A stretch of 63,520 nucleotides of DNA, taken from a virus. Positions 25,039-41,744 of this stretch are shown here, piece by piece. The DNA lies in IMG/VR virus record IMGVR_UViG_3300030613_000001, positions 1-63,520 of that record; one strand, 5' to 3'. The position numbers and the translations under genes were made by a program. The number at the start of each line of letters is the position of its first letter. The stretch's first letter is position 1. The notes beneath the pieces were generated by a model that was not told the DNA's origin, ran no database searches, and saw only the letters and a list, made by a program, of their open reading frames with translations.

Positions 25039-25048
25039 GACCTTTCTC

Positions 25049-26560: not shown

Positions 26561-26584
26561 GTGGGAGCGGCTTCCAGCCGCGAT
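26561..26584 (+). repeat. REP-like element, copy 5 (intergenic)
   Basis: Consensus sequence between the lipoprotein stop (26591) and the SD of 26317..26544. Confidence 0.9.
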
Positions 26585-26590
26585 TTTTCT

Positions 26591-26764: not shown

Positions 26765-27124
26765 TTAGTACGGCCCGGGCGGGGATATGCTAAGCCCATG
26801 CGGCGTGGATAATATGCTGTGACGCCGCCCCGGCCACACGAAAGTCAGGTGCGATCCAGGGAGCACATAGGCTGCCCCGTCCTCGAATTTAACGGTCGTA
26901 ACATCCCCGCCGGCGAGCGAATATTCGACATTGCTAACCACGCCCGTGTGCACCACGTTCGCGCCCGCCGAAACCGGCTCCGATACGGCCGCCGGCGCAG
27001 TGACTTCCGGCTCCGAAAACACCTCGAGTACCGCGCTCATCCCTCCCAGAACGAAAATCACGGCCACGGTAATAATAGTTGCAATGCTGGTGAAGACCTC
27101 TCCGCGATTGTCACCGATTCTCAT
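26765..27124 (-). CDS. N-terminally anchored membrane protein (119 aa); weak i-spanin candidate
   Basis: ATG 27124 overlaps the giant-gene stop (ATGA); TM segment FTSIATIITVAVIFVLGGMSAVL. Confidence 0.55.
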   Translation of the reverse strand: MRIGDNRGEVFTSIATIITVAVIFVLGGMSAVLEVFSEPEVTAPAAVSEPVSAGANVVHTGVVSNVEYSLAGGDVTTVKFEDGAAYVLPGSHLTFVWPGRRHSILSTPHGLSISPPGPY

Positions 27125-30100
27125 GGCGTCCTCCTTTTGTAGGCTTCCTTGTACCACTTGCCCGCCCGCTTCACCGTCTCCCGGTCCTCGGAAGAAAGCG
27201 AGTTATAGAACTTCGTGCGGTACTTTTTCGGCAACGCCGCCAGCGGGTTGGCGCGGTCCACCGACATTTTCAACCCCTTCATGTTGCCGCCCAGCTCCTT
27301 GTACTTCTTGAGATACCGGGCGGCCGCCTCGGCATCCCCGTACTTTAGCGCGGTTTTGTACCAGTAAAGCGCGTTGCCCCGATCGGTGGGCTCGTGGAAT
27401 GGCCGCTCTATGTTCCGGTCCTCGAGGAACCGGGAAACCAGTTCGCGTGCTCCGTAATAGGCCGTCTCCCCCGGGTTCGCGCTGTAGGAAAACGTCCGCA
27501 TGATGTCGTCCCACACCTGGCCGGCCAGGTCCCCGCCTTTCATCGGGCGCCCAACGACGCGCCGGTAGAAGGATTCCAGGGACAGCATACGCGCCACGTA
27601 CTCGCCCTTGTCGCGGATCGGCCGCGGCCGCCAGAACTCGGGATAAACCGTACGTCCGGAAATAAGTTCCGCCCCGCCCTTGATGTCCGGCCGCATGCCC
27701 TGTATCAGTTTGTTCGCGGGTTCGGCAGCCGCCTCCCCCAGCCACCGGTAGACCGTCTTTTTCCCGGTGGCGAGATCCTTCATATCCTCCGGGAAATCGT
27801 GTAGGTTGAACCAGCTCAATGCGTCGGAGAGCGCCCCCTGCAGGCGCAGGCTTATGATCGACCCGTCCGACCGCCGCCCCAGAATCAGGTGCATCTGCCG
27901 GCGGCCCTCTTCGCCCAGCTCGTCCTCCTCGTCCGGGAACATCAGCGCATTCCAGAGTGCGACTGCCCCGTAAATCATGAAAGCCTTGGCACCAAGGAAG
28001 GCCGCCTTCTTGCCGGCTACCGCCCCCATCAGCGCGACACGCCGGCCGGCCGGCTCGCCCTCCACCGCGATATTTCGCATCATCCGCCAGTAGCGCGGCG
28101 CGTTGATCTCCTGCCAGCTGTAAAACGGAATCAGCTTGCGCCGTAGCCAGCGCCCACCCTTGGAAAGCCCGCCATAGTCGCCCACCAGCTCGCGCGAGAG
28201 CAACCCCGCCTTGCGGTCGATCTCGTCGTTTGCGATCGCATCCACCTTCGACGGCAGACTCGCCCCATAGACCCGCTCGCCGGCGGCAACCCGTTCCTTG
28301 AAGTACCTGAAGGCGGCAAGCCGCAGCACGTTTTCCCGCCAGCTCGTGAAATTCTTGGAGCCGTGCCAGAATCGCGCAATCAAATCGATTGCCACGTTGT
28401 CGCGGGCACCCATTGCGCGCTCAAGCTGCCGGAATTCGGGAAGCTTGCCCACGTCCGGGATATCGTGGGCCGTGATCCCGCCGATCACCCCGTGCTGGAG
28501 TGCGGCCTTGAACTCGGCTTTAAGCTCCGGGCTCATCGACTTGTCGTAGTGGTAGGCCCATAGGTCGCGCATGGCGCGGCCGGCGTGCTTGAGGATCCTC
28601 GGATCGTAGGCAAGGGCGATGTCCAGATCGCCACTCAGGTTGTTCAGGTTGTACTTGACCACGCGAAGCGGGTTGATCAGGATCCAGCGCTTCCACATGT
28701 TGAGGGTGTTTTCCGCCAGGCCGCTCACCACGTTGTCCTTGCCCTTGCTCTGGAAGTCGGCACCGTCCATCACCTCGGCGAGCTCGGCCGGAATCACCCA
28801 GCGCACGTCGGCACCGCGCGCGAGCACCGGTCGCGTGTCGCCGGACTCAAGCTGCCGGTTGCCTGCCAGCACCTCGCCCAGGATCTGGTCGTTGATGGAG
28901 TTCGTCATGTACCAGGCCGTCCCCGGCCGCGGCACCCACTCGGCCCATCCGGTCGATCCGGCCCGAGGTGCCAGTTGTTTCATCGTGTTGCGCCAGGTGA
29001 CATACCGGCGTCCGAGTGCCTGCTTCCTGAAGGCGCCTTTCTCGGTCGGGTCAAGCGCCTCGTACTGCTGCTTGAGTTGCGGATCGGATTTCAGCATGGC
29101 CTTGAACGCCGCCTTGTTCTGCCTGCGCGCCACGTTCCGCAACTGGGAGATGACGTTCGCGGACCGGCCGATATCGTCCAGCACCTTCTTCCTGGCCAGC
29201 CGCTCGTAGCCCTGCGCCAGCACCTGGAACTCGCTCTCGATGTACTTGGTGTTGTAGTCCTTGATCGACCCGGTGCGCGCGTACTGCCAGCCCGCCTTGC
29301 GTACCCGCACCTCGCCCGCCTCGACCCCGGCGGCGTGCTTGGCGTTGGCGTATTCGAGCACCTGGTGGTGAAAGTAGCGATCGTCGTCCAGCACACTCTC
29401 GGGCAGCATTTGCGCGTTGACCAACGCCTGCCGCAGTTTGCCCATTACCGCCTGGCGCCGGTTGAGCGCGTCCCGCACCTTGGGACGGGCGACCATGGCC
29501 GCGTCCACCTTGGCGATCGCGGCATCCACCTCGTCCTTGCTCTTGAACCCGAAGGCGATCTCGCCCTCCGCGTCCACGATCTCCCGCCAGCTCTCCAGCA
29601 CCCCGCCCGGCTCCATGTCGCGCGTCAGGTCGTCCAGCACGAGCTTCAGCCCGAACAGGTCATGCTCGGCGGCGGTCATGTTTTTCGGCTCCAGGATGTC
29701 CTTCAACTCCATGATGGCGCGGGCCTTGCCGTAGTCCCCGGCCTCCATGAATTCCCGCAACAGCACGTTTTCGCGGCCGAAACGCGCGTTCGGCATCTTG
29801 GGAAACATCCGGCCCGGAGTGAAGGTTGCCACGGCAAGCTTCGTTTTCTCTTTGATCGTTTCCAGCAGCTTCGTCCGTTCTATCTTGGAGGCGCGGTACC
29901 GCTCCGCCACCGCCGCCGGCAGCACGTCCGTCACGATGTCGTATTCCTCTTCCCCCGCTTTTGTGGGAGCGGCTTCCAGCCGCGATTCCTCTCGCGCCCG
30001 CAGCGCCCCCGCCTCGCGGTATCCCGGCCCGGCGGCGCGCTCGGCCGCCAATGTACCCTCCCCGCGCCGCTCATACACCCGGCCGCTCTCGATCTCCCGC

Positions 30101-33100
30101 ACCACCCCGCGCGCCGTCACCTTGAACAGGTTCACGATCGCATCCAGGAAGTCGGCCACCGTGTCCAGGATCCGCTTGAGCGATCCGCGATGCTCCTTGC
30201 GGTCGGCGAGCTCCTGCCGGATCCAGTTCGCCCGGTCCTCCTTGCCGCCGATGTCCTTCGGGTTCTTAGGCTCCCACCGGCCGGCCGCGGCCTCCTGCCG
30301 GATCTTGTTCCGCAGGGCCACGATGTCGTCCTTGGCGAGGATCCCGGCGTCCTCCATCCAGTGCACGGCTTCGTGCTGCAGCACCCAGGCGTTGGTGCCC
30401 GCCCCGCGCACAAGCCGCACGACCCCGCGTCGGCGCACGTAGGCCCCGGCGGCCTTGTACTCGCCTGCAGGCTGCTTCGTGCCGAAATAGGCGTCCACCG
30501 TCGCCTGGTCCACGGAAACATGCTCGACGCTGTGCACGTAAAGCTGCCGCCCGGCCATGGTGGTGATCCAGATCCCGCCATCGTCCTGCGTGATCTTCTG
30601 CCCCGGAAACACCGCCTGCACGTCTTCAAGAGGGATGTCATTGCCGGCGATTTTTTTGCCAGGCTCGATCGCGTATTCCTCTTCTCCGGCGCCGGCCGCG
30701 GGGATTTCCGCCGCCGCCTCTTCCGCCTCGGGCGTCTCCGCCGGACCTTCGCCTTCCGTGTCCACCTTCGTCATACTCAGCAGACCGTCCAGCGCATTGC
30801 CCTCGCCCGCCTCTTTGCTAACCTGGGACGGTATTTTTTTAAGCTCTTCCTCGATTGCGTGCAGCCGTTCCTCGGCCTCTTTAAGCTCGGCGGCCTGGCC
30901 GAACGGCCGCGTCGCTATTTTCTTGAACTCGCCCAGGTCCTTGCGCATCTGCTCGATGTGCTTTTCGGTGTTCGCGGGCCGCTCGTTGATTCGTGCGATC
31001 TCGTTTTCGAGCGAGCTCAGCAGCCCGCCCATCTTGTTGACGGCGCGTTTGATTAGAAAATCTTCGCCCTTGCGGCCAAACCCCACGGCGATATCGAACC
31101 CGGATAATTTATATTCATTGATTTCATGCAGTTTGTCGTAGGCTATGAGTTCTTTTTTCCGCTGGTCTATATTGGAATATCCGTTTTTGTTTGTATAAAC
31201 CGGACGGATGCCGACCTGCACATTGTGCCTGTGCGCGGTGAAGTTGAAATGCATCACCGGGCGGTTTTCCTTGTAATCCGCCCATTCCGCTGTGGTCATT
31301 GTCGTCGGCAGCTTCTTCTGTTCGGTCGTCTCAAAAGCAACAAGCGCCTCGTTTAGCGCCTTGCGGTCGGCCGGTTTCCCGCGCACCACGAACTCGGCAA
31401 GTTTACCGCCAGGGATGGTGCGCTCAAGCTCCGCCGTCTGGTCTTTTTCTTCTTTAAGTGCCGTCTCCCAGTTCGGTATCCGGTCCCCTTCGAGTTCGCC
31501 CGCCTGGCGCCGCGCCATGGAAACCTCATGCTCCCAGCGCAGGCGCGCCCGCCGCAGCTTCTTCACCTTCAGATCGACGTCGGTCTTTTCAAACACCAGG
31601 GGGTTGCCGGAGAAAGCCGCCATCATTTCGGCAAGGCTTGCCTGCTCTTCGCTCAACGGATCGTCGAACTCGCGGCCCTCGATGTCGCCCACCAGCATCT
31701 GATCGATGAAGCGCTGCTTTTTCGTCAGCCGGTCGTACATCACCGAGTCAAGGGTCGCGCGCACCCCGTAGTTGTAAATCCGCACCTTGGGGTTGCTGTT
31801 TCCCTCGCGCACAATCCTGCCGTTTCTCTGCTCGATGTCCATCGGCCGCGGCGGCACGTCCACGTGGTGCGCGGCGTACAGCAGATCCTGCATGTTGACG
31901 CCCACGCCGAGCTTCTGGCTGCTGCCGATCACGACCCGCACCGCACCCGAGCGCACCCGGTCGAACAGCGCCTCGCGTGCCGCGTCTCCCTTTGCATCGG
32001 TCACGACCGCCACTTCTTCCTTGGGGATACCCTGCTCGATCAGCTTGGCGCGGATGTCCTCGTAGGCGTTGAAACGCCCGGTGCTGTCGCGGTAGCTGTC
32101 CAGAAACACCACCTGCGTCGAGCGGTTGCCGGCGGTCCCCTTCCACACCTCGAAGACGTTCTTGACCACCTGGTTGAGCTTGCTGTCCGGGTGGTCGTCG
32201 TTCCTCGCGTTCACCAGGCGCATATCCACCGCGGCCTTTTTGGCAAGCCCGAAGAGCACGAGCGGCACGTGCCGGTTCTTCATCTTCTCCTTACCGGACA
32301 GATGGTCCCACTGCTCGCGCGCAGCCCTGATCTGGTCGATGAACCGGTTTAGCTGGGGCGTGCGCTCGACCGTCACGAATTCGGGTTTCCCGCCGGCGAT
32401 GTCCGGCAGTTTCAGCCCGGCGTCGCGGGTCAGCTGCACGTCGGCCGCGGTGCGCCACATGGTGAGCAGCTCCAGGCCGTTCACGTACTTGTTGAAGCGC
32501 TCCACCTCGCGGTAGGTTCCGGTCTCGGTTTCCTCGAGGGCCGTCTGTGTCCGGCCGAAGGTCGCCGCAAAATCGTCGAACAGCTCGATCCCGTAGTCTT
32601 CCAGCAGGTCCGGCCGCACGTAGCGCACGATCGTCCAGAGTTCGGCCGTGGTGTTCGATATCGGGGTCCCGGTCGCAAGGATCACGTTCTTGCCGCCGGT
32701 TTTGCCCTGCACGTAGCGCGCCTTGAGGAAAAGCGATGTCGAGCGCTGGGAGGCGCCGCTGTCGATTCCCTTCACCTTCGCCATCTTGGTGAAGAACTCG
32801 CTTCTCTTATAGGCGTGCGCCTCGTCCACCAGGAGCGCGTCGATTCCCATCTGCTCGAACGGTATGGCCTTGTCCTTCCTCCGGTCGAGCGCTTTTTCCA
32901 GGCGCGTCTCCTTGCGCTGCTTTAACGCCTCGAGATCCTTTACCGTCCAGTGGTCGGCGCCCTCGTCCTCGGCTTCGGCCAGCGCGGTATTGATCATGTC
33001 GATCTGCTCTCGGATGAAAGCCGCCTCGCGTTCGGGGTCGTCGGCGATCCCGTCGAAAAAGCTGTGCGGCATCACGATTGCGTCCCAGTCGCCGGTGGCC

Positions 33101-36100
33101 ATCTGCGAAAGCAGCCGCTGCCGGTAGCGTGCCGCGCGCTGTTTTTCGTCCGGGATCAGGACACGGGCGCCGGGGTAAAGCCGGTTGAAAGCCTTGCGGT
33201 ATTGCCCGATCGTGGAATTCTGCACCACGATCAAGGGCTTCTTCGCCGTTCCCACTCGGCGCATTTCCATGGCCAGGCTGATGAAGGAGTAGGTCTTGCC
33301 GGTGCCCACCCCGTAGGAAAAGATCGTGCTCTCGCGCAAGCCGCGCGCCACGAACCGCTTTTGCAACGGACGCAGCTTGATCTGCGGGTTGGCTCCCGGG
33401 AAGTGCTCGATCCTGGGGTTGGTCTGCGCGCGCAGCACGTGCCCGTTTTTTTCTTCGTTGTAGATCTCGGCAAGATCCTTCTTCCAGCGCTCATGCGCCC
33501 GGGCCCAGCGCAGAAACTCTTCCTGGATCTCTTCCTGCTTGGCCTGGGCCGCCTCGGTCGCCTCGACGTCCTTGACGGTCCGGCGCACGCCGTCGTCTAT
33601 CTCCGTGTAAGTGACCTGCGGACGCTTTAGGTTAAGCGCGTCGGCCACGAGATCGGAGCCGCTCATCCCGCCGGCGCCCCAGGTCTCGCGGTTAAGCGCC
33701 GCGTACTCGCCGTTGGTCACCTCCATGTGCCAGCGGCTCATCTCGTTGTTCTTGCTGAAGGCCGCCCGTGCATCGACCCCCATGGTCTCTTTTAAAAAAT
33801 CCTGGATGGATTCGGCCGGAAGCCACGGGGACCCCAGCTTGAAGTGGATAAACTCGATGTCGACCGCAGCCGGCTGCACCGCTTCGAGTGCCTTGACGTT
33901 GCCGGCGTACTCCGGGTTGTCCTCGGCTGCCGCCTGGGCGGCTTTCAGCTTCTTCTTGACATTGCCGGAAAGGTAGGCGTCGGGCGCTTCGAGCAGCCCG
34001 GTCTGCGGGTTTAAGAAGGCCAGGCCCTTGGTCACGAGTTCGGTGCGCACGTCGGTCTCGTCACGGCCGATCAGTTGCGCGATGTAACCCGTGTCCATCC
34101 CCGCGCGATAGACCTCGGATAGCGAAACGGCGTCCTCGATGTTTTCGGCCGTCGTGGGTTCGACAAAGGGGTAGATCGTGCGCTTGGTGAAGGTGTCGCT
34201 CTTGGTGAAGGTCTTTACCTTGCGGTTGGTCGGCTGGCCCTTGTTCTTGCCGCTTTTGACCGTATCGGCCACGATGGCCACTTCCTCGTTTTCGAGGGAG
34301 TCGACCACCGGGAACTCGATATCGATCTTCTTTAAAAAGCTGTTGGAGGTATCGCCGATGTAGCCGTAAAGGCGCACGTATTCGTCGTAGGAGCGGTTCA
34401 GCTCGGCGCGCAGGGTGGCAAGTTCCGCGTCGGTTGCCTCGTGCGTGTTGCTGCGTTCGATCAGGGTCTTGTGGGCCGACTTGATCTTCAGGTACTGGGC
34501 GGCGCGGGCCTTGCGGCTTGCGCTCGCAAGTGCCGCGACCTCTTTCCCCTTGGAGTCGATCAGGGTCGGGGCGACAAGCTTCCCCTCGGTGACCATGTAG
34601 ATCTCGCCGTCGCGCTCGATCAGGGCGCCGTCCGGGTCCCCGCGCTCGGCGTACTTCACCGGGCCGGCCGCCGCCTCGGCCGCCTGGCCCTCGCCCATGA
34701 TGTTCTCGGGGAAACGGCCGACCGCATGAATCAGTTGCAGGTTGAAGTCGTTCCGGTCGCCGAGCGGCTCCACCGTGTATTCATTATCGGAGTACATGGT
34801 GCCCTGGGTGGAGTGCTTGCCGAGCACCATCTCAGGGTGTTTCACGAAATACTCGTTCACGAACGCCTTGCCGTCTTTGCCGATCGCAATCTCTTCGGCC
34901 ACCCGGAAATCCTGGGCGAGCCCGTAGCTCGATGCATCTTTCTTGCGGAACACCAGGATGTCGGTCACGACCTCGGTGCCGGCGTTCTTCTTGAACGCAT
35001 TGTTCGGCAGCCGGATCCCGCCCACGAAATCCGCTTTCTTGGCGAGCTCCGCGCGGATCTCGCCGTTGGTTGCGGCGTCCAGGGTAAAGTGGCTGGTGAT
35101 CGCAACCACCAGGCCGCCCGGCCGCACCGCGTCGAGTGAGCGGCCGAAGAAATAGTTGTGGATGCTCCATTTCTCGTATTGCTTGCGTTTGGGATCGAAA
35201 ACCGAGAATTTGCCGAAGGGGAAATTCGAGATCACCAGGTCCTGGGTGTTGTCTCCCAGTCCGCGCGCCTTCTCGAAACCGCTGATTTGCACGCGCGCCT
35301 GCGGGTAAAGCTTGGTCAGGATCTTGCCGGTAATGGCATCGAGCTCGACCGCGTTGACCCTTGACTTTTCCGCAAGCGTTTCGGGCATCATGCCGATGAA
35401 ATGCCCGACGCCGGCGGCAGGCTCGAGTACCGCTCCGCCCTTGAACCCCAGGCGCGCGACCATGGCCCACATGCGGGTGATCACGTCGCGGTCCGTGTAG
35501 TGGGCGTTTAACGTCGAGGCGCGCGCGGCGTCCCACTCTTCTTGGGTGAGGGCCCCGCCCAGCGCTGGGTGCAGTTTTTTTCCGTACTTGGATTTCCAGG
35601 TGTTGAATTTGTCGAGCGTGCCGGTCTGCCAGAAGGTCCGCTCGGGGGTCCTGCGGCCCGCGGCAAAATCGTCCAGGGGGCGGGTGTATTCCTCGTTGAA
35701 GATTTTTTGCGCAAAGGCGCCCCACCCCACGTACTGGGCGAGCACCTTCTTTTCTTCGGGGGATGGGTTGCGGTTTTCGGCGTAAAGGCGATTGACAAGC
35801 TCGATGGCCTTGATATTGGCCTTGATCTTGCCTTCGTCGCCCGGGGCGATCAGCTCGTCATCGGGAGCAATGACGTGGTTGCGGTCCTCGGGAGCTAACT
35901 CAACAGGGCGTCGAGTATCTTCTCCCGCTCGCTTTCCGGCAGCGGCTTCGGGGGATTCGAGGAGAGCGCCGGTCCGTCCGCCGGCGCCACGATCCGGGCG
36001 AGCACCAGTTCGTCCGCCTCGGTGCGGTCGATTCCCTGTTGCAGCAGCCGCACCTGCTCCAGGCTCGCCACTTGCAGGTTGCGCAGCAGCTCCGCCTTCA

Positions 36101-39100
36101 GCTTCGCCGGGGATTTCTCGAACAGGTTCTTCACCCGCTGCGGCTGGTTGTCCAGCAGCCAGATCAGCCGCGCTTCGTACATCGGATCGCTTTGCGGGTT
36201 CTCGATCTCCAGGCTCGAGGACTCGACCTGGTTCAGATCCTTCAGGCTCAAAGCTTTCATCGGCCACCTCCTTGGTTGGTGGTGACGTTTGTTCAATTAT
36301 AACGCTTTCCGGGGGTTTTTCAAGAGTTTTCTTCCCCGTCAACGTAGCCGTGGCGTCTGTCTTAGGCTTTGCGCTCAGCTTGATCGCATGAAATTTACCA
36401 TTGCGGTCGCTCAGATCCAGCCGGTCCAGGGTGATCTCCTGGCCGCTGAAACGCTTGTCTCCGGCGTATTCCTTGCCCTTTCCGGGCATCACATAGGCGA
36501 TCGTGACGTGCGGCTTATAATCCTTGTGTGTCTCGCCCGGGGCCTTCTCGGTTTCGCCTACCAGCCGGTTTGCCCGGTCGAGGTCGGGGCTCGTGACGTC
36601 GGCCTTGACGACATCGTACTTCTCGCCCGCAAAAATAGAGACGTCACCGAGGGTTGCCTTGATGGGCCCGAAACCTTTGAACGCCTTCCGCAGGTTCTCC
36701 GGGGAATCGGTCGCAAGCCCATAGCGCACCGTTACGTGGGGTTTCTCCTCGCGCCCATAGCCATCCGTGTCCGCCGGATCTACATAGAGATCTTCGTCCG
36801 GGATCTCGCGGGCGAAGTCCCTGATGGAATCCGCCACATCCGCCGGCATGTCCACCTGGGTGCTGCTGTAATCGTGAGCGATCGGTATCTGCTCTTCAGA
36901 TTTCGCTTCGGCGGCTGGAACCGCCTTCTTTCCCGTCAACGTTTCCACCGCGCGGGTCTTGTGTTTTTCAGGAATCGCCGCCGCGGGGACGGACTCCCGG
37001 GCCGCCTCACCTTCCAGGCCCTCGCCGGCCCTCGGCCGCAGAACGAATCCACCCTCCACCGCGGCGACATCGTGAGAGCCTTCGAGTTTCTTGCCCCGCC
37101 GCGCAAAACGCGCCGCATTCGCGTTTTTGTATGGCTGGCCATCCTTGTTGAGAATGTCGCCCTGAGGGATCGGTTTGCCGGGCAGCGTCGCCGCCGCGAC
37201 TTCAGCGACTTCCTCCTTGCCGATCAGACTCTCTATCTCTTTCCGGCTGTACGGGCCGCGCCACCCGCTGACTTTCTCTATGGTAATCGGAGCGGACACC
37301 CATTGCGGCTTGTCATCCGCAGCGATGTACCATCCGCCGGTTTTGGTCCGGGCGTCTTCCTGGAACGCCTGCTCGTCTTGAGATATGTAACTCTCCGGGA
37401 TTACCCGCGGTCTTCCGGTCAGCGTCGCTACTGCATCGGTCCTGGGCTTTTCGGACTGGTCTCTTTCCTGCTGCAAACTGTCCGTGATGCCCGGGTACTC
37501 GTCGAGCACCTCCTGCGGCACGGGCTTGTCTTCACGCAAAGCATTGAGCACCCGGACGTAGTGGTTGGCTCGCGCCAGACGTTCTTGCCCTTTAAAACGG
37601 GCAGCGTCGCGCCACTTGATGATAACCGCCGCCTGCGCGTGCTTGTTGGGCATGGAGACGTTTTCGCCGATCGTGCGCGCGATCTCACGCAGCGAATCGG
37701 CATGCTCGCGCTCGGCCAGGGACTCGATTGTGTCATCTGAGATCCGGCGGCGTATGTCGATCGACCGGGCGATCCTACGGGCACGCTCTTCTTTTGTGCC
37801 GGATTTCGGGATGCCCATGACGATGGCGAGCTGCTCAATCTCTTTATTGGAACGGTCCTTAACCTGCGCGTAGTCGATATTTTGCGGATCGAGCGCCAAG
37901 ATCGACTTGGCGGGAACCTTGAGCGCATCGGGGTGTCCTTTCCTAAACTCCCGGGGAGTCATCTGCCATGGTTCTTTTTTCTCGGCAGTGTCGGTTTTTA
38001 CCGCTTCCGCGGCCTGCGGCTGTACGACCTCGGCGGCTGACACCGGTGGTGCTTGTCCCTGCATAGGGGAAGGCGAGATCGTTGAACCTTGGGCCTCTAA
38101 TGCAGTCGCCCCGGCAAGCCACGGCGCCGCTGCTTCCACGGGTAGAGTTTCGGTCTTTTGCGCGGTTTCCGCCTGAGGAAGAGCTTCCGCCGCCGCTGCT
38201 TCCTCCACCGCCACCACGGAAGCCTGCCGCATCGGGGCGGATCGGCCGGTCAAAAGCTTGCGGATATCGGTCTTCTTCCGCTCCGGGGCTTTTGCCTGGG
38301 CGGTTACGTCCTCGCCGGTGGCGCCGATCGGCGGCGCCTTCTCTTCCGTGGGAGCGGCCTCCAGCCGCGATTCCTCGATGTCCTCCGAAATGGCCCTGCC
38401 CTGCAATACCGCCTGCAGCGCCCCCTCGCGCCAGCGCTCGGCAAGCCCCTTGTCCACCCGACCTAATTCGTCCGCCACGGCACCCACGGCCGAAAACCGG
38501 TCTTCCGCACCGGCATCTGGGTCCATCAGCGCGTCCCGGACCTGCCCGGTGCGCAGCTTGTGCACCCCGCCGCCGACAGCGCCGAAGATCAGGCTCGCCA
38601 CCCCGATCTGACCGAAATTCTCCTTTACCGCACCCCAGAACCGTTCGTCGCCCACCTTGTAGGTGTGCTCGATCTCGGCCTGGGTGCCCACGTTGACAAG
38701 CTCGCCCGCCGTCTCCGTCCCGGTCACCGCAAGACCGCGCTTGGCCGCCTCGGACCAGGAGGACGAAATCAATCTCTTGATACCGTCCTTCGCCGCCGCC
38801 TTGGCCGGCTTGGTGAGCACACCGCCCATTCCGACGGTAGCAAGCTCCAGGGCGTCCGTAAAAAACTCGAACCCCGCCTCGGAGGCCCCCATCAAAAGCG
38901 CCGCGTGCTGCGCCTCGTCCTTTGGAACCCCTTTCTTGACGTATTCGTCATAGGACTGCTGGTACTGCGCAAGGCCAAAGAGCGGCGCCCCCATGATGTA
39001 GCCGAGTGCCGCTCCGGCGGCTCCGCCCGTCGCAGCACCGAGCGCCACCGTGGGAGCCGCCACCCCCAGGGAGGTAACGGCCGACTCAACCCCGCCCGTC

Positions 39101-39513
39101 CATGCCTTCCGCACCGGATCCGTCCGCGCCTGGCGCGACACCGGCAGCACGTCCTCGCGGAAACCGGCGATGTCCCGGGCCGCTTCGGCCATTATCGGCG
39201 CCTCTTCGCCCCCCAGGGTGTCAACCGCCGCGAGGGCCCGGGCGCCCATCTCGGCTACCCCGACCGCACCTCGCGCAACCGACGCCCCGACGTCCGCGAG
39301 CACCCCCCGATCGGGCGCAGGCGCACGGTGCGGAGCTATGTTCGCGTCGACAAACTCGGTCCTGATCGCCGCCTGCTCATTATCCGGCAACTCGCGGAAG
39401 CGCTCGTCGGCCAGGTCCTGATCGAAGTAACGGCTTATCAGCCGCTCCTTGTCGACCGTTGGAAGCTTGGCGAAATCAGGCTCGCCGAACCACTGCTGTA
39501 CGGTTCTGTTCAT
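27121..39513 (-). CDS. Giant polyvalent virion/ejection protein (4130 aa): 2H phosphoesterase + N6-adenine DNA methyltransferase + SNF2/DEAD-type helicase + HExxH metallopeptidase-like motif + large C-terminal region
   Basis: Single uninterrupted ORF; all motifs listed in the domain features were checked to lie in frame 0. Sits after three putative internal virion proteins and before the lysis genes. DarB-like methyltransferase-helicase core. Confidence 0.85.
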   Translation of the reverse strand: MNRTVQQWFGEPDFAKLPTVDKERLISRYFDQDLADERFRELPDNEQAAIRTEFVDANIAPHRAPAPDRGVLADVGASVARGAVGVAEMGARALAAVDTLGGEEAPIMAEAARDIAGFREDVLPVSRQARTDPVRKAWTGGVESAVTSLGVAAPTVALGAATGGAAGAALGYIMGAPLFGLAQYQQSYDEYVKKGVPKDEAQHAALLMGASEAGFEFFTDALELATVGMGGVLTKPAKAAAKDGIKRLISSSWSEAAKRGLAVTGTETAGELVNVGTQAEIEHTYKVGDERFWGAVKENFGQIGVASLIFGAVGGGVHKLRTGQVRDALMDPDAGAEDRFSAVGAVADELGRVDKGLAERWREGALQAVLQGRAISEDIEESRLEAAPTEEKAPPIGATGEDVTAQAKAPERKKTDIRKLLTGRSAPMRQASVVAVEEAAAAEALPQAETAQKTETLPVEAAAPWLAGATALEAQGSTISPSPMQGQAPPVSAAEVVQPQAAEAVKTDTAEKKEPWQMTPREFRKGHPDALKVPAKSILALDPQNIDYAQVKDRSNKEIEQLAIVMGIPKSGTKEERARRIARSIDIRRRISDDTIESLAEREHADSLREIARTIGENVSMPNKHAQAAVIIKWRDAARFKGQERLARANHYVRVLNALREDKPVPQEVLDEYPGITDSLQQERDQSEKPRTDAVATLTGRPRVIPESYISQDEQAFQEDARTKTGGWYIAADDKPQWVSAPITIEKVSGWRGPYSRKEIESLIGKEEVAEVAAATLPGKPIPQGDILNKDGQPYKNANAARFARRGKKLEGSHDVAAVEGGFVLRPRAGEGLEGEAARESVPAAAIPEKHKTRAVETLTGKKAVPAAEAKSEEQIPIAHDYSSTQVDMPADVADSIRDFAREIPDEDLYVDPADTDGYGREEKPHVTVRYGLATDSPENLRKAFKGFGPIKATLGDVSIFAGEKYDVVKADVTSPDLDRANRLVGETEKAPGETHKDYKPHVTIAYVMPGKGKEYAGDKRFSGQEITLDRLDLSDRNGKFHAIKLSAKPKTDATATLTGKKTLEKPPESVIIEQTSPPTKEVADESFEPEGSEPGRVLEPGDREPAKRSDVRSAADLAAGQPAAAGEEPVREIPGEAEGGAAAQPASGEPGAGAAAATGNRPHRGGRTGARPDRGAGGRTGALLESPEAAAGKRAGEDTRRPVELAPEDRNHVIAPDDELIAPGDEGKIKANIKAIELVNRLYAENRNPSPEEKKVLAQYVGWGAFAQKIFNEEYTRPLDDFAAGRRTPERTFWQTGTLDKFNTWKSKYGKKLHPALGGALTQEEWDAARASTLNAHYTDRDVITRMWAMVARLGFKGGAVLEPAAGVGHFIGMMPETLAEKSRVNAVELDAITGKILTKLYPQARVQISGFEKARGLGDNTQDLVISNFPFGKFSVFDPKRKQYEKWSIHNYFFGRSLDAVRPGGLVVAITSHFTLDAATNGEIRAELAKKADFVGGIRLPNNAFKKNAGTEVVTDILVFRKKDASSYGLAQDFRVAEEIAIGKDGKAFVNEYFVKHPEMVLGKHSTQGTMYSDNEYTVEPLGDRNDFNLQLIHAVGRFPENIMGEGQAAEAAAGPVKYAERGDPDGALIERDGEIYMVTEGKLVAPTLIDSKGKEVAALASASRKARAAQYLKIKSAHKTLIERSNTHEATDAELATLRAELNRSYDEYVRLYGYIGDTSNSFLKKIDIEFPVVDSLENEEVAIVADTVKSGKNKGQPTNRKVKTFTKSDTFTKRTIYPFVEPTTAENIEDAVSLSEVYRAGMDTGYIAQLIGRDETDVRTELVTKGLAFLNPQTGLLEAPDAYLSGNVKKKLKAAQAAAEDNPEYAGNVKALEAVQPAAVDIEFIHFKLGSPWLPAESIQDFLKETMGVDARAAFSKNNEMSRWHMEVTNGEYAALNRETWGAGGMSGSDLVADALNLKRPQVTYTEIDDGVRRTVKDVEATEAAQAKQEEIQEEFLRWARAHERWKKDLAEIYNEEKNGHVLRAQTNPRIEHFPGANPQIKLRPLQKRFVARGLRESTIFSYGVGTGKTYSFISLAMEMRRVGTAKKPLIVVQNSTIGQYRKAFNRLYPGARVLIPDEKQRAARYRQRLLSQMATGDWDAIVMPHSFFDGIADDPEREAAFIREQIDMINTALAEAEDEGADHWTVKDLEALKQRKETRLEKALDRRKDKAIPFEQMGIDALLVDEAHAYKRSEFFTKMAKVKGIDSGASQRSTSLFLKARYVQGKTGGKNVILATGTPISNTTAELWTIVRYVRPDLLEDYGIELFDDFAATFGRTQTALEETETGTYREVERFNKYVNGLELLTMWRTAADVQLTRDAGLKLPDIAGGKPEFVTVERTPQLNRFIDQIRAAREQWDHLSGKEKMKNRHVPLVLFGLAKKAAVDMRLVNARNDDHPDSKLNQVVKNVFEVWKGTAGNRSTQVVFLDSYRDSTGRFNAYEDIRAKLIEQGIPKEEVAVVTDAKGDAAREALFDRVRSGAVRVVIGSSQKLGVGVNMQDLLYAAHHVDVPPRPMDIEQRNGRIVREGNSNPKVRIYNYGVRATLDSVMYDRLTKKQRFIDQMLVGDIEGREFDDPLSEEQASLAEMMAAFSGNPLVFEKTDVDLKVKKLRRARLRWEHEVSMARRQAGELEGDRIPNWETALKEEKDQTAELERTIPGGKLAEFVVRGKPADRKALNEALVAFETTEQKKLPTTMTTAEWADYKENRPVMHFNFTAHRHNVQVGIRPVYTNKNGYSNIDQRKKELIAYDKLHEINEYKLSGFDIAVGFGRKGEDFLIKRAVNKMGGLLSSLENEIARINERPANTEKHIEQMRKDLGEFKKIATRPFGQAAELKEAEERLHAIEEELKKIPSQVSKEAGEGNALDGLLSMTKVDTEGEGPAETPEAEEAAAEIPAAGAGEEEYAIEPGKKIAGNDIPLEDVQAVFPGQKITQDDGGIWITTMAGRQLYVHSVEHVSVDQATVDAYFGTKQPAGEYKAAGAYVRRRGVVRLVRGAGTNAWVLQHEAVHWMEDAGILAKDDIVALRNKIRQEAAAGRWEPKNPKDIGGKEDRANWIRQELADRKEHRGSLKRILDTVADFLDAIVNLFKVTARGVVREIESGRVYERRGEGTLAAERAAGPGYREAGALRAREESRLEAAPTKAGEEEYDIVTDVLPAAVAERYRASKIERTKLLETIKEKTKLAVATFTPGRMFPKMPNARFGRENVLLREFMEAGDYGKARAIMELKDILEPKNMTAAEHDLFGLKLVLDDLTRDMEPGGVLESWREIVDAEGEIAFGFKSKDEVDAAIAKVDAAMVARPKVRDALNRRQAVMGKLRQALVNAQMLPESVLDDDRYFHHQVLEYANAKHAAGVEAGEVRVRKAGWQYARTGSIKDYNTKYIESEFQVLAQGYERLARKKVLDDIGRSANVISQLRNVARRQNKAAFKAMLKSDPQLKQQYEALDPTEKGAFRKQALGRRYVTWRNTMKQLAPRAGSTGWAEWVPRPGTAWYMTNSINDQILGEVLAGNRQLESGDTRPVLARGADVRWVIPAELAEVMDGADFQSKGKDNVVSGLAENTLNMWKRWILINPLRVVKYNLNNLSGDLDIALAYDPRILKHAGRAMRDLWAYHYDKSMSPELKAEFKAALQHGVIGGITAHDIPDVGKLPEFRQLERAMGARDNVAIDLIARFWHGSKNFTSWRENVLRLAAFRYFKERVAAGERVYGASLPSKVDAIANDEIDRKAGLLSRELVGDYGGLSKGGRWLRRKLIPFYSWQEINAPRYWRMMRNIAVEGEPAGRRVALMGAVAGKKAAFLGAKAFMIYGAVALWNALMFPDEEDELGEEGRRQMHLILGRRSDGSIISLRLQGALSDALSWFNLHDFPEDMKDLATGKKTVYRWLGEAAAEPANKLIQGMRPDIKGGAELISGRTVYPEFWRPRPIRDKGEYVARMLSLESFYRRVVGRPMKGGDLAGQVWDDIMRTFSYSANPGETAYYGARELVSRFLEDRNIERPFHEPTDRGNALYWYKTALKYGDAEAAARYLKKYKELGGNMKGLKMSVDRANPLAALPKKYRTKFYNSLSSEDRETVKRAGKWYKEAYKRRTP
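29963..29986 (+). repeat. REP-like element, copy 6
   Basis: Consensus sequence; in frame in the giant protein (REESRLEAAPTKAGEEEY). Confidence 0.9.
30361..30375 (-). other. HEAVH (HExxH) zincin-like motif in the giant protein
   Basis: cac gaa gcc gtg cac in frame 0, in the context WVLQHEAVHWMEDAGI. Confidence 0.5.
31750..33380 (-). other. SNF2/DEAD-like helicase domain of the giant protein
   Basis: Walker A GVGTGKT (33292..33312), VDEAH (32815..32829), LATGTPISN, motif VI QRNGRIVREGN (about 31798..31830). Confidence 0.85.
34936..35840 (-). other. N6-adenine DNA methyltransferase domain of the giant protein
   Basis: Motif I LEPAAGVGH (35401..35427) and motif IV SNFPFG (35212..35229), preceded by the LAQYVGWG helix typical of methyltransferase-helicase fusion proteins. 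Confidence 0.8.
35895..36260 (-). CDS. Nested ORF (121 aa) in the +1 frame of the giant gene
   Basis: Perfect AAGGAGGT 5 nt before ATG 36260, TAG stop at 35895. Product MKALSLKDLNQVESSSLEIENPQSDPMYEARLIWLLDNQPQRVKNLFEKSPAKLKAELLRNLQVASLEQVRLLQQG... is helical and protein-like. About 105 of 121 codons end in G/C by hand count, whereas frame 0 here is low-complexity. Confidence 0.6.
   Translation of the reverse strand: MKALSLKDLNQVESSSLEIENPQSDPMYEARLIWLLDNQPQRVKNLFEKSPAKLKAELLRNLQVASLEQVRLLQQGIDRTEADELVLARIVAPADGPALSSNPPKPLPESEREKILDALLS
36376..36880 (-). other. 2H phosphoesterase (LigT / cyclic phosphodiesterase-like) domain of the giant protein
   Basis: Two H-x-T motifs at the right spacing: PHVTVR (36724..36741) and PHVTIA (36496..36513), about 75 residues apart. 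Confidence 0.7.
38348..38371 (+). repeat. REP-like element, copy 7 (one unpaired stem change)
   Basis: GTGGGAGCGGCCTCCAGCCGCGAT; in frame in the giant protein (IEESRLEAAPTEEK). Confidence 0.9.
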
Positions 39514-39536
39514 TTATTTGCGAATTTGTTCATTTT

Positions 39537-41075
39537 TTACGGTTGCGCCGCTGCGGCCTGCCGCCTGTCGCGGCCCCACGCATTGATCTTTTCCACCGCC
39601 GCCTCGGCAAGCGACCCCGGCTGAGTCATTCTCCCGCGTCCTCCGGCCGCAGCGTCGGGGTAAAGCCCCGCCGCCGGCGCAGCCTTGCTTTCGGCAGCCT
39701 TAATTTCCTTTCCGCCCTGGGTCTCCTGCAGCGGCTTATTCTTGGCGGCCGTCTCTTCGGCCATGAGCTTGCTCAGGCGGCTTTTAGCCCCGCGCCGGTA
39801 AAACCCCCAGTCGCCCTGGTCGTCGGGGCTTTCGTTTTTCTTACCGTCTGCGTTCGCCGCCTTGCCTGCCCCCATCAGCTCGTTAAGCTTCTTCTGCATA
39901 TCCCCCACGGTCAGCTTGCGCATCTGGCCCTTGCCGTCGTCCACCTCGCCGGGATTCAGCTCGGCCCATTCGCGGAACTTCGGCAGCACCTCGGTCATGA
40001 GGCGCCGCTGCTCGGTCGGGTCCTCGGTCGCGTCAAGCATCGCCCCGAAGATCCCCTTGGCCTTCTTCTCGTGGGCCGGGTCCTCGTCGGTGTCCGGCCA
40101 ATAGAGGTTCTTCCAGTGCTCGGTCTCCTTCTTGGTGCGCGCCTTGTAACCGGTCCAGGTGGTGCCGGGCAGCGGAATGACCTTGATCTTGTCCCCGTCG
40201 TTCCTGTCCATCACCGTAACCCCCAGGCGGTCGTCCGACATGGGTACGGGCCCGGTGCCGATCGGCTTGTACCGGTCCTCGATCTTGATCCCGGAAGCCT
40301 CTTTCAACTGCCATTCATCCATGTCCGGGAATTTCTGCTTTAGGTGCAGATACTTGTCGTATTCGGTCGTGGCTATTCCGAGCGCCTTCTTGACGCCCAT
40401 TTCGGCACTCTCGTATTTGCGGGCCGTTGCGATCTTCTGCTCATCCTCGTTAATTTTTTTCGCCGTCTCGCCCATGATGGCCGCGACGACTTCCGGGTGC
40501 TGCGCACCGAAAAATCGATCCACGGCGTCCTGGGCGGTCCCCTTGAACAGCGGGGCCACCTGGCCGTCGGGGCCCTCGTTTCCTACCGTCCACTCCTCGT
40601 CGCCGGCGGCGTTTTTTTCGCCGGTCGGAGTTACGGCCAGCTTGTTCACACCTAAAAATTTCCTGGTCTTGTCGCTGCGGTTGATTACGTCGGCCAGATG
40701 CCCGAGGTCCTTGTGGTAGCGGCTGTCGGTCTTTATGACCGCTGGCAGTACTTGCGCAAACGTCTTCTTCGCCTCGTCCAGCATGTCCTTTTTCTCGGCC
40801 TGTTCCATCGCCACCCGGTGGCTCTCGGCCCCCTGCTCGGCCGCTTGCTTTTGCAGCGCAAGGGTCTGCGTCTGAAGGATCGGCTTGCCGAACCCGAGCT
40901 TATAGGACAGCATGTCCACGATGGCGTGCCCGACGCCGTAACCGTCGTCTTTAGCGGCGGGCTTTTCCGCCGCGGTCTGCCCCGCGGGCTGCGCCTGTGC
41001 GGCGGGTGCCGGCACCGGTTGGGCCTGCGGAAATTCTCCGGTTCCGCCCTCGTTTATGTCGGGATACAGTCCCAT
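39537..41075 (-). CDS. Internal virion / ejection protein candidate (512 aa)
   Basis: AAAGGGAGGGG SD; Ala/Lys/Glu-rich, no enzymatic motif; position immediately upstream of the giant gene. Confidence 0.6.
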   Translation of the reverse strand: MGLYPDINEGGTGEFPQAQPVPAPAAQAQPAGQTAAEKPAAKDDGYGVGHAIVDMLSYKLGFGKPILQTQTLALQKQAAEQGAESHRVAMEQAEKKDMLDEAKKTFAQVLPAVIKTDSRYHKDLGHLADVINRSDKTRKFLGVNKLAVTPTGEKNAAGDEEWTVGNEGPDGQVAPLFKGTAQDAVDRFFGAQHPEVVAAIMGETAKKINEDEQKIATARKYESAEMGVKKALGIATTEYDKYLHLKQKFPDMDEWQLKEASGIKIEDRYKPIGTGPVPMSDDRLGVTVMDRNDGDKIKVIPLPGTTWTGYKARTKKETEHWKNLYWPDTDEDPAHEKKAKGIFGAMLDATEDPTEQRRLMTEVLPKFREWAELNPGEVDDGKGQMRKLTVGDMQKKLNELMGAGKAANADGKKNESPDDQGDWGFYRRGAKSRLSKLMAEETAAKNKPLQETQGGKEIKAAESKAAPAAGLYPDAAAGGRGRMTQPGSLAEAAVEKINAWGRDRRQAAAAQP

Positions 41076-41090
41076 GCGTCCCCTCCCTTT

Positions 41091-41729
41091 TTACTGCTTG
41101 GTATTTCGCCCTTTGCGCCGGGCGCGTTGCTTCTCCGGCGTGTCGTTCAGCCACTCGGATAGCGCGGTAACCTTCTGCCCGAATTCGCCCTGCTCGCCCG
41201 CCCCGCCCGAATCGGCGGCGGCAGCCACGATCCCGGACGCCCCGCCGAGCTTCCTGGCCATCTTCTGCCGGGCGTATTCCTTCACGGCGTTTTTCAGGTA
41301 ATCCTGGATGGCGGGGGATGTCTTTTCCGCCGTTGCGGCGGCCTTGTCGCCATAGGTCTCTCCGCCCATGACGTCTATCGCCTGAGGGGCCGGCGCTTGA
41401 GGCAGACTACCGCCGCCATCGATGGCCCCGAGCTCGCCGGCGGACCCTGCTTTTTCCGACCCATAGGCCTCCATCCCGCCATCGAGGGCGCCTACCATCC
41501 CTTCACCGCCCCCACCGCCTTCGGCTCCGGAGGCGATGGAACCAATCACGCCTCCCAACTTCGATGATGGCGCCGCCGGCGGCGGCGCCTGAGAAACCTG
41601 GGACACATCCGTCCCTTCAGGCGACTGTGCGGGGGCTTCGATTTGCTCCTGTTGCGCCTGGAGCGTCTTTTGCTGAGACGCCTTTTGGCCCTTTACAGCG
41701 TTGACGATCGCTCCGATTATTTGCCACAT
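41091..41729 (-). CDS. Internal virion protein candidate (212 aa), Gly/Ala-rich with a hydrophobic N-terminus
   Basis: ATG-initiated track ORF; MWQIIGAIVNAV N-terminus. Confidence 0.6.
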   Translation of the reverse strand: MWQIIGAIVNAVKGQKASQQKTLQAQQEQIEAPAQSPEGTDVSQVSQAPPPAAPSSKLGGVIGSIASGAEGGGGGEGMVGALDGGMEAYGSEKAGSAGELGAIDGGGSLPQAPAPQAIDVMGGETYGDKAAATAEKTSPAIQDYLKNAVKEYARQKMARKLGGASGIVAAAADSGGAGEQGEFGQKVTALSEWLNDTPEKQRARRKGRNTKQ

Positions 41730-41744
41730 GGTTGTTATACCTCT

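Follow-up and report, generated by a model that had tools for sequence, protein, structure and literature searches.

Results

A giant gene in a complete temperate phage genome

The window analysed here comprises 63,520 nucleotides (positions 1 to 63,520 of IMG/VR record IMGVR_UViG_3300030613_000001) from a temperate phage. It is a complete genome whose ends overlap by 127 bp, so that the giant gene accounts for 19.5% of 63,393 bp. This open reading frame (27121..39513, on the minus strand, as are all features described within it and upstream of it) starts with ATG and encodes 4130 amino acids with no internal stop and no cysteine. The frame is open over 12.4 kb with a coding-type composition (GC3 0.80 vs GC2 0.44), and the extent given in the first-pass annotation, about one fifth of the genome, stands. 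Standalone C5 and N6/N4 methylases are also encoded by the phage.

Three genes lie upstream (39537..42518; 512, 212 and 257 aa). Together with the giant gene they form a block of 5111 residues with zero cysteine, compared with 1.3% elsewhere in the genome. By position and this cysteine-free signature they are candidates for co-ejected internal proteins. An earlier description as three putative internal virion proteins agrees with both features, but a search for homologues of the three proteins detected none. Lysis genes, comprising an M15 peptidase (24667-25038) together with genes for small membrane proteins, follow the giant gene in the order first noted; they are not adjacent to it, about 2.1 kb with four or five small ORFs lying in between.

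Modules of the N-terminal quarter

The N-terminal module N1 (aa 1-375, 38389..39513) is Gly/Ala-rich and contains four moderately hydrophobic stretches, which confirms the hydrophobic N-terminus initially described. Glycine and alanine make up 28-30% of aa 1-400, and the four stretches reach Kyte-Doolittle values of 1.0-1.4, below the classical transmembrane score. In a single-sequence search, 9 of the 150 listed family representatives begin with N1, and an iterated search gave an alignment of 26 sequences. The segment at aa 531-687 (37453..37923), present in 2 of the 150 listed relatives, is helical as annotated, but with a net charge of +2 it is hardly "basic".

A peptide motif, [KR]T[DR]x4LTG[KR], occurs in four copies at module borders: KTDIRKLLTGR (aa 414-424, 38242..38274), RTDAVATLTGR (aa 691-701, 37411..37443), KTRAVETLTGK directly ahead of the 2H domain (aa 852-862, 36928..36960) and KTDATATLTGK directly behind it (aa 1051-1061, 36331..36363). 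The codons of the copies differ synonymously, and at least one copy was obtained in only 2 of 20,000 shuffles; the four-fold motif lacks conservation among homologues. The apparent peptide repeat EESRLEAAPT, at aa 380 (38348..38373) and at aa 3175 where the HExxH domain meets the C-terminal module (29963..29988), is the product of a 26-nt DNA element with eight copies in the genome.

Enzymatic domains

The 2H phosphoesterase domain (aa 870-1048, 36370..36906) carries both HxT motifs, HVTVRY at 926 and HVTIAY at 1002, and matches Pfam 2_5_RNA_ligase2 above the curated cut-off (E 1.4e-6). A profile built from seven sequences retrieved the anti-CBASS enzyme Acb1 (9q2g_A, E 6.7e-6, in an alignment that pairs both HxT motifs; 7t26_A, E 0.021). 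By this profile comparison Acb1 is the nearest solved relative, LigT-like enzymes being almost equally near (2d4g, E 0.016). The initial 2H assignment is thereby upheld. Among the 150 listed family representatives the domain occurs in 5; at least one other member (P0073) combines it with a methyltransferase-helicase, as does the giant protein.

A helical lead-in and an N6-adenine methyltransferase follow (aa 1231-1620, 34654..35823). The GWGA motif of the lead-in fits the GXGU motif described for LPD36. Motif I of the methyltransferase is LEPAAGVGH at 1363, and SNFPFG at 1429 contains motif IV, NFPF, in the clade form N-[VFWP]-P-F. The next segment comprises a conserved middle region and an SNF2-type helicase (aa 1621-2720, 31354..34653) with a Walker A motif GVGTGKT at 2068, VDEAH at 2229 and QRNGRIVREGN (QRxGR) at 2562. 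The helicase exceeds the curated cut-off of Pfam SNF2-rel_dom (E 6.6e-8), and ResIII and Helicase_C score slightly under theirs. PHROG 10089, "DarB-like antirestriction", covers aa 1044-2908 with E = 0, and three colinear BLASTP matches to P1 DarB span aa 1334-2716 (E 2.7e-24, 2.7e-15 and 2.4e-10). Both enzyme calls of the first reading are thus substantiated, and so is its interpretation as a polyvalent protein of P1 DarB architecture, the gene lying within the late/virion operon. A methyltransferase-helicase is found in only 26-29 of the 150 listed family representatives.

The HExxH domain (aa 2950-3170, 30004..30666) is a candidate zincin-like peptidase, with HEAVH at about aa 3046-3047. 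Among 13 homologues H3046, H3050 and E3091 are invariant and E3047 is nearly so. It was detected in 12 of the 150 listed representatives by a single-sequence search and in 20 after iteration. The conserved residues bear out the motif reported at first; the zincin fold, however, gained no peptidase match by Foldseek, PDB profile or Pfam. The proposed domain-by-domain profile and structure check thus upheld the 2H, methyltransferase and SNF2 domains and returned no match for this one.

A family-defining C-terminal module

The remaining C-terminal module (aa 3181-4130, 27124..29973) consists mostly of helices, among them a hydrophobic one at aa 3826-3860. The roughly 1100 terminal residues had been noted as being of unknown function. 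They do not form an orphan region: the module of about 950 aa matches 2311 cluster representatives from metagenomes and prophages. It is nearly always located at the C-terminus (148-150 of the 150 listed representatives) of proteins of 1000-6600 aa with variable domains upstream; further cargo recorded in the family includes GGDEF, RadC, ART-PolyVal, MuF_C, M23 peptidase and ddrB-ParB. Cysteine amounts to 0.043% of 400,296 residues in 150 homologues.

The AlphaFold model of the module (pLDDT 73.5) matched, with E down to 2e-28, fragments from the ends of viral proteins annotated as "large polyvalent protein associated domain", and no match was obtained among solved structures. None of the Pfam LPD families, among them LPD38, reaches E <= 0.1 on the giant protein, so the module represents a sequence family that is either divergent or undescribed. 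A tblastn search of 50,697 isolated phage genomes with the module returned no match, nor did an HMM search against the C-termini of giant proteins of isolated phages. Profile-profile comparison with the latter was colinear over 839 columns at a non-significant E of about 1e-3, and the T7 and N4 controls were clearly weaker (E 0.3-0.7). No sequence or profile similarity to T7 gp15/gp16 or the N4 virion RNA polymerase was found. The branch to which the giant protein belongs is large and has so far been observed in uncultured phages only.

Homologues and gene position in isolated phages

The methyltransferase-helicase core shares 31-35% identity with SopranoGao gp6 (4369 aa), Atu_ph08 gp21 (4877 aa), JC1 gp69 (4515 aa) and Gamede gp42 (4639 aa). 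The order virion proteins, giant gene, lysis genes is found in three of these four phages (SopranoGao, JC1 and Gamede). JC1 gp69 was detected with 51 unique peptides in CsCl-purified virions (PMC9144972), and phi24B gp47 (2811 aa), which carries an LPD38 domain, is an abundant virion protein that has been put forward as an ejection protein. Cysteine is absent from T7 gp15 and gp16, from N4 virion RNA polymerase, gp51 and gp52, and from JC1 gp64, gp67, gp68 and gp69. The equivalent position in isolated podophages, the presence of JC1 gp69 in virions and the cysteine-free block strengthen the original proposal of an ejected-protein slot.

Discussion

From the domains, homologies, family architecture, gene position and cysteine-free composition observed here, we infer a virion-delivered polyvalent protein built from a fixed chassis and swappable cargo, an assignment we consider likely. 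The chassis would consist of the N-terminal hydrophobic module and the helical C-terminal module, with the cargo between them. The protein would be synthesized late, alongside the structural genes, and packaged into the capsid, probably via the C-terminal module, much as N4 virion RNA polymerase is through its own C-terminal region. Upon infection it may thread unfolded through portal and tail, accompanied by the three upstream-encoded proteins that likewise lack cysteine; the complete lack of cysteine supports such packaging and injection. The cargo could then act in the cell ahead of any phage gene expression. The methyltransferase-SNF2 dyad would shield incoming DNA from type I restriction, as P1 DarB does, and the Acb1-like 2H phosphoesterase may hydrolyze the alarm signals of CBASS-like systems, either cyclic oligonucleotides or molecules with 2'-5' linkages. 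The HExxH domain may cleave the polyprotein, and the four [KR]T[DR]x4LTG[KR] motifs are possible sites.

Conservation falls on the chassis and not on the cargo, as would be expected if the protein were mainly a structural ejection conduit like T7 gp16 or phi24B gp47, its terminal modules building or extending a trans-envelope DNA channel and its enzymes being secondary. We regard this as a possible but tentative reading, and one compatible with an injected anti-defence role. The hydrophobic stretches at aa 70-321 and 3826-3860 would suit a channel, yet all lie under the classical transmembrane score. The position behind small cysteine-free proteins recalls T7 gp14-15-16 and phi24B gp47 has been proposed as such a conduit, whereas similarity to T7 gp15/gp16 is absent at sequence and profile level. 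In Bcep22-type homologues, as in T7 gp16, a lytic transglycosylase occupies the N-terminus, but neither this nor any other wall-degrading domain was found in the giant protein.

Alternatively, the protein may not be packaged at all but act in the cytoplasm as a late product, methylating progeny DNA before this is packaged and breaking down signalling nucleotides late in infection, its operon location reflecting only timing. The standalone methylases indeed indicate that DNA modification is part of the lifestyle of this phage. We nevertheless consider this improbable, because it leaves unexplained both the total absence of cysteine common to proven ejected proteins and a non-enzymatic C-terminal module shared by thousands of proteins with unrelated cargo, and because homologues with the same core were detected in virions. 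Least probable is an annotation artefact, in which an error of sequencing or assembly joined several genes or an ORF arose by chance in a GC-rich genome. Two related contigs do show two overlapping gene calls in the equivalent region (at least 2264 and 1767 aa in L001, 2542 and 2815 aa in L094), and directly before the C-terminal module lies a 26-nt repeat copy with a purine-rich stretch and a GTG behind it; separate expression of this module is conceivable. However, the frame is uninterrupted and coding-type, its domain order is colinear with single-gene homologues (4369-4877 aa) of well-sequenced isolated phages, and single ORFs also encode many metagenomic homologues (3000-6600 aa).

The injected anti-defence protein favoured here can be compared with several known systems. 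P1 DarB (2255 aa) contains the homologous N6-adenine methyltransferase, middle region and SNF2 helicase in identical order but, at about half the size, is essentially the dyad alone. It has 9 cysteines, whereas the giant protein has none, and the cysteine-free rule is thus not universal among injected proteins; P1 is moreover a myovirus, in which packaging of DarB needs DarA, Hdf, DdrA and Ulx. Acb1, the anti-CBASS 2H phosphodiesterase encoded by T4 gene 57B, has catalytic HxT motifs that align with those found here, but it is a free-standing enzyme of about 150-165 aa, whereas the present domain forms part of a giant protein that is probably injected. Acb1 is expressed after infection and is not known to be packaged in virions. 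N4 virion RNA polymerase (3500 aa), an injected protein, is likewise giant and cysteine-free, and its plan of N-terminal injection region, catalytic middle and HExxH-bearing C-terminal region needed for encapsidation can be likened to the present one. Its cargo is an RNA polymerase instead of putative anti-defence enzymes, and the C-terminal module bears no similarity to it.

The closest known proteins are the giants of Bcep22-like (Lessievirus), PBC5-like and Lastavirus podophages, namely Bcep22 gp75, JC1 gp69, Atu_ph08 gp21, SopranoGao gp6 (annotated as "PLxRFG protein") and Ralstonia Gamede gp42. Like the protein described here they comprise 4100-4900 aa, about one fifth of a genome of about 60 kb, have no or almost no cysteine, and end in a long helical region in which motif islands are colinear; an HExxH motif lies a few hundred residues past the helicase in three of four, as it does here. 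They differ in that their N- and C-terminal regions cannot be aligned with ours by BLAST or HMM, their neighbouring virion genes are unrelated, they carry a lytic transglycosylase or cell-wall hydrolase domain that is absent here, and no 2H domain was detected in the four isolated-phage giants. Phage-type polyvalent proteins, to which LPD38-bearing proteins such as phi24B gp47 belong, include proteins whose annotations and folds are matched by the model of the C-terminal module; the giant protein itself gives no LPD Pfam score at E <= 0.1. The first-pass annotation had not recognised the domain combination, but 2H, methyltransferase-SNF2 and zincin domains were described together in phage-type polyvalent proteins by Iyer, Burroughs, Anand, de Souza and Aravind in 2017 (PMC5512222), giant DarB-like virion proteins are well documented, and P0073 too joins a 2H domain to a methyltransferase-helicase. 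The phage-type polyvalent proteins are late-expressed polypeptides that unite numerous unrelated enzymatic domains, an HExxH metallopeptidase being among those listed; the giant protein has the 2H and methyltransferase-SNF2 domains and, as a candidate, the HExxH domain. The giant protein is therefore a known kind of multi-enzyme polyvalent protein and not an unprecedented combination.

The giant gene and its genomic setting

The window corresponds to a complete phage genome, the first 127 bases of which recur at its end, and the tyrosine integrase encoded at 22837-23937 (+) marks the phage as temperate. The giant open reading frame at 27121-39513 (-) starts with ATG and runs through 4130 codons without an internal stop, with a GC3 of 0.80 versus a GC2 of 0.44, values typical for real genes of the same genome. 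The motifs quoted for it in the first-pass annotation were all recovered in the proposed order, and ORF check and motif search together show that the gene is real. In two related contigs with equivalents of the giant gene, L001 and L094, it was called as two overlapping genes.

The gene shares strand and operon with the terminase, structural, tail-fibre and lysis genes. Neither the three proteins encoded upstream of it nor most of the structural genes gave a Pfam or PHROG match, and the genes upstream of the giant gene in phages JC1 and Gamede and in contig L094 bear no resemblance to these three. The interval between the giant gene and an M15 peptidase holds a DUF1353 protein ('tail assembly chaperone' in PHROG) and small ORFs (25829-26383 (-) and 24301-25324 (-)). 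Each of these small ORFs encodes one hydrophobic helix, and they may be candidates for a holin or spanin. ORF 26765-27157, with one membrane-spanning stretch, overlaps the giant gene at its end. Elsewhere on the minus strand are genes for a C5 cytosine methylase (17369-19150), an N6/N4 methylase (14054-15382), a D5-type primase-helicase (6225-8864) and a DUF5131 protein (11045-11917). The genome thus encodes two stand-alone DNA methylases besides the methyltransferase of the giant protein; in the related elements L029 and L094 the same pair adjoins the giant gene.

A conserved C-terminal module with variable cargo

With the last 1199 residues as query, 1.84 billion cluster representatives were scanned in full by HMMER. 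A total of 2311 proteins reached E <= 0.001, and for 1543 of these E was <= 1e-30; the matched stretch almost always formed the very C-terminal end of a protein 1000 to 6600 residues long. Among the 150 family representatives listed from this search, a module of about 950 residues (the C-module, aa 3181-4130) was present in 148 to 150, the methyltransferase-helicase pair in 26 to 29 and the 2H domain in 5; the HExxH segment was detected in 12 by single-sequence search and in 20 after iteration. Other relatives carried GGDEF, RadC, ART-PolyVal, MuF_C, M23 peptidase or ddrB-ParB domains as cargo. Since the C-module is nearly universal among the listed relatives and the other domains are patchy, we describe the protein as a constant chassis with variable cargo. 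The C-terminal part of about 1100 residues, which had been left without a function in the first-pass annotation, is therefore no orphan sequence.

Several relatives lie on contigs of 60 to 65 kb, similar to this genome. Nitrospirota, Desulfobacterota, Gemmatimonadota, Bryobacterales, Synergistota and sphingomonads also have relatives, located in chromosomes and in metagenome-assembled genomes; prophage examples are those of Sphingopyxis flava R11H and Novosphingobium sp. FKTRR1 (loci L029 and L034). Bryobacterales genomes contained up to five C-module genes each (L045, L046, L048, L054 and L082 belong to one genome; further loci are L049 and L070), which suggests many related prophages per genome or another mobile element. 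In 50,697 isolated phage genomes, no match was obtained by tblastn with the C-module or by megablast with the giant gene. A word-indexed search with the C-terminal 1232 residues gave one match only.

The AlphaFold model of the C-module (pLDDT 73.5) is mostly helical and had no significant Foldseek match in the PDB. It matched the final fragments of viral proteins annotated as 'large polyvalent protein associated domain', including LPD38, with E values of 2e-28 to 1e-7 and TM-scores of 0.4 to 0.5, and there was no Pfam LPD match by sequence. At the other end of the protein, the N1 module (aa 1-375) consists of 28 to 30% Gly plus Ala and contains four moderately hydrophobic stretches, all scoring below a classical transmembrane segment. 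It occupied the N-terminal end in 9 of the 150 listed relatives. The N-terminal 880 residues had no match among PDB sequences.

The enzymatic cargo

Two enzymatic assignments of the first-pass annotation, a methyltransferase joined to an SNF2 helicase as in P1 DarB and a 2H phosphoesterase, held up. The former spans aa 1231-2720 and matched PHROG 10089, 'DarB-like antirestriction', with E = 0. Its methyltransferase has the features of the EcoKI/TaqI-like N6-adenine enzymes, defined by an xEPxxGxG motif I and an NPPF/Y-like motif IV, here LEPAAGVGH at 1363 and NFPF at 1430, and an SNF2-type helicase is fused C-terminal to it. Because the clade uses N-[VFWP]-P-F as motif IV, NFPF is a family trait and no lesion. 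BLASTP aligned the methyltransferase with that of P1 DarB at 32% identity (E 2.7e-24), and three colinear matches between the giant protein and P1 DarB confirm the homology of the dyad. Pfam SNF2-rel_dom scored above its cut-off, ResIII and Helicase_C just under theirs. The core matched 141 phage records. With the whole protein as query, PDB sequences yielded only SNF2 ATPases, weakly. NCBIfam yielded only sub-threshold helicase and methyltransferase matches to defence-system models. Packaging of such a dyad in the virion is known from relatives such as JC1 gp69, and in the literature, antirestriction, which for DarB means protection of incoming DNA against type I systems, is demonstrated for P1 alone.

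The 2H domain (aa 870-1048) reached 28.9 bits with Pfam 2_5_RNA_ligase2, against a cut-off of 27. The 2H superfamily is defined by two HxT/S motifs on a duplicated alpha/beta fold, and the giant protein has HVT at 926 and at 1002, both HxT motifs being invariant in seven homologues. The best PDB match of a profile built from these seven sequences was the anti-CBASS protein Acb1 (9q2g_A, E 6.7e-6), with both catalytic motifs aligned; T4-type Acb1 (7t26_A) scored E 0.021 and a LigT-like protein (2d4g) E 0.016. Judged by this profile, the domain may be Acb1-like, Acb1 being its nearest solved relative with a LigT-like protein close behind. A tblastn search of the 50,697 phage genomes with the first 1051 residues matched only 2H domains in jumbo phages. 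For polyvalent proteins, 2H domains have been suggested as possible degraders of defence-signalling nucleotides (Iyer et al. 2017, PMC5512222).

In the HExxH segment (aa 2950-3170), both histidines and a glutamate 41 residues past the second histidine were invariant in 13 homologues, and the glutamate of the motif was nearly so. Zincins carry HExxH on a helix and a glutamate as third zinc ligand on the next helix, preceded by a small beta-sheet. In the AlphaFold model (pLDDT 68), helices come after a small sheet, as they would in a minimal zincin. Foldseek against the PDB returned nothing at E < 0.6 with this model, the profile matched no peptidase in the PDB, and the alignment found nothing relevant in Pfam. 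We regard the segment as a plausible candidate for a zincin-like peptidase. A helix past the core (aa ~3105-3135, window ~30109-30201, LKRILDTVADFLDAIVNLF) gave a weak match to LL-37 (E 0.14), which is at chance level and probably reflects an amphipathic helix only.

Cysteine-free composition and proposed delivery

The giant protein and the three proteins encoded upstream of it (512, 212 and 257 aa) contain no cysteine, which amounts to 5111 consecutive residues at 27121-42518 of the window; the rest of the genome averages 1.3% cysteine. From the observed frequencies, the chance of such a run was estimated at ~e^-68. Cysteine made up 0.043% of 400,296 residues in the 150 listed homologues and was absent from 97 of them. 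The comparison with other phages took in T7 (L087), N4 gp50-52 (L086), JC1 (L004), Gamede (L005), SopranoGao (L002) and contig L094. No cysteine was present in T7 gp15 and gp16, in N4 vRNAP, gp51 and gp52, or in JC1 gp64, gp67, gp68 and gp69, the last four being virion proteins confirmed by proteomics, and neighbouring head-closure or tail proteins of the same phages did contain it. The rule is not universal for injected proteins, since P1 DarB has nine cysteines. A literature search found no mention of the signature.

The absence of cysteine fits proteins that unfold and cross a narrow channel and the oxidising periplasm, and it may be a simple predictor of tail-threaded phage proteins. That the three upstream genes encode internal virion proteins is supported by their being cysteine-free like the giant protein. 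The ejection proteins of podoviruses reside in the core of the capsid and leave it ahead of the DNA. By gene position and by the signature shared with T7 gp15/gp16 and N4 vRNAP, the giant protein is a candidate podovirus-type ejection protein, and we infer its injection from position, composition and the presence of homologues in virions.

Repeated elements in the gene and the genome

The motif [KR]T[DR]x4LTG[KR] occurs four times in the giant protein, at aa 414, 691, 852 and 1051, that is, at module borders and on both flanks of the 2H domain. The copies differ by synonymous codons, and the chance expectation is essentially zero. The motif was not found in homologues, and taking the copies for processing sites is speculation. 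Two other peptide repeats were discarded as signals. The two copies of AGEEEY are within chance, with ~0.13 exact 6-mer repeats expected at uniform composition, a rough estimate that would be higher for a protein rich in A, G and E. EESRLEAAPT (aa 380 and 3175) was ruled out as a protease site, since it results from a 26-nt DNA element, present in eight copies, being read in frame.

This element, RAATCGCGGCTGGARGCCGCTCCCAC, lies at 8050-8075, 9129-9154, 12419-12444, 20787-20812, 26561-26586, 29963-29988, 38348-38373 and 54554-54579, always on the minus strand, where none would be expected by chance. It has an A-rich lead-in, a 5-bp GC stem with a pentaloop and a CTCCCACAAAA tail. Six copies are intragenic and are all translated in one phase, as (E/K)SRLEAAPT; two copies precede a ribosome-binding site and ATG by 20 to 30 nt. 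Exact matches to its 24-mer core are present in five IMG/VR contigs (L088-L092), which include unrelated phages. A role as promoter of a phage RNA polymerase was rejected, since the 879-aa ORF is the D5-type primase-helicase and no RNA polymerase emerged when the largest non-structural ORFs were scanned with Pfam. The element may form an RNA hairpin of the boxB/nut type, act as a promoter or in processing, or be a small mobile element. At the border between HExxH segment and C-module (29941-29991), a purine-rich stretch (GGGGGAAGAGGA) and a GTG in frame (aa 3194) come after one copy, so that the C-module might also be produced alone from an internal start.

Comparison with known systems

Giant injected polyvalent proteins are a known, little-studied route by which ready-made counter-defence enzymes enter the cell. 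A broader reading of our data, which we put forward only tentatively and hold as a whole to be rather doubtful, is that N1 and the C-module would form a general protein-injection chassis with interchangeable enzymes. Its users would be ~60-kb temperate phages of a very large group that has yet to be cultured, with prophages in Nitrospirota, Desulfobacterota, Acidobacteriota, Gemmatimonadota, Synergistota and sphingomonads. In the same reading, a pre-made Acb1-like nuclease would destroy CBASS-type signals at DNA entry, and complete cysteine avoidance would be a usable signature for tail-threaded phage proteins. To our knowledge, anti-CBASS action of Acb1 at the moment of DNA entry has not been described. 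Apart from that reading, the conserved part of this example is a probable delivery chassis and not the enzymes, and one branch of that chassis, with more than 2300 protein clusters, is without a cultured representative. An Acb1-like domain can apparently belong to the injected load and, if active, would disarm cyclic-nucleotide immunity before phage transcription. If more widely valid, the cysteine-free signature would allow simple prediction of ejected proteins in uncultured phage genomes.

In the large polyvalent proteins of phages, as defined by Iyer et al. (2017, PMC5512222), a single chain joins several domains of differing biochemistry, and the gene lies among those for late functions or packaging; the domains of polyvalent proteins include 2H, the methyltransferase-SNF2 dyad and zincin peptidases, and 2H and LPD38 are confined to the phage type. 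Here, 2H, methyltransferase, SNF2 and HExxH segments are found in a single ORF of the late operon. In SopranoGao (Klebsiella), JC1 (Burkholderia) and Gamede (Ralstonia), a gene of 4369 to 4639 codons is located between virion-associated proteins and the lysis cassette, in that order. The 4877-aa homologue of Agrobacterium phage Atu_ph08 adjoins genes for virion structure, and the stretch examined there contained no lysis gene. In virions of JC1 purified on CsCl, gp69 ranked second by score among the proteins detected and was represented by 51 unique peptides (PMC9144972). The Bcep22 homologue has an N-terminal lytic transglycosylase (PMC6630229), which the giant protein lacks.

Only the core of the giants SopranoGao gp6, Atu_ph08 gp21, JC1 gp69 and Gamede gp42 aligned with the giant protein by BLAST or HMM; the N1 and C-module HMMs found no match in these four, and the literal PLxRFG motif was not found in the giant protein. 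In profile-profile comparison of the C-terminal regions, the match to SopranoGao, at E about 1e-3, was colinear across 839 columns. Its confident islands included the 'PLxRFG' site (PLARFGDYF) opposite WVPRPGTAWY, RENxLRLAAYR, YYKxAxKxGD and a hydrophobic helix with an acidic patch after it. The controls T7 gp15, T7 gp16 and N4 vRNAP gave E values of 0.3 to 0.7, and this profile comparison indicated no relation of the C-module to them. The C-module and the SopranoGao C-terminal region are therefore probable remote homologues, as far as profiles can tell. The features of interest, namely the Acb1-like cargo, the uncultured chassis branch and the cysteine-free signature, do not make a new kind of system; giant polyvalent anti-defence proteins delivered with the virion are a known class, to which the giant protein genuinely belongs as a divergent member.
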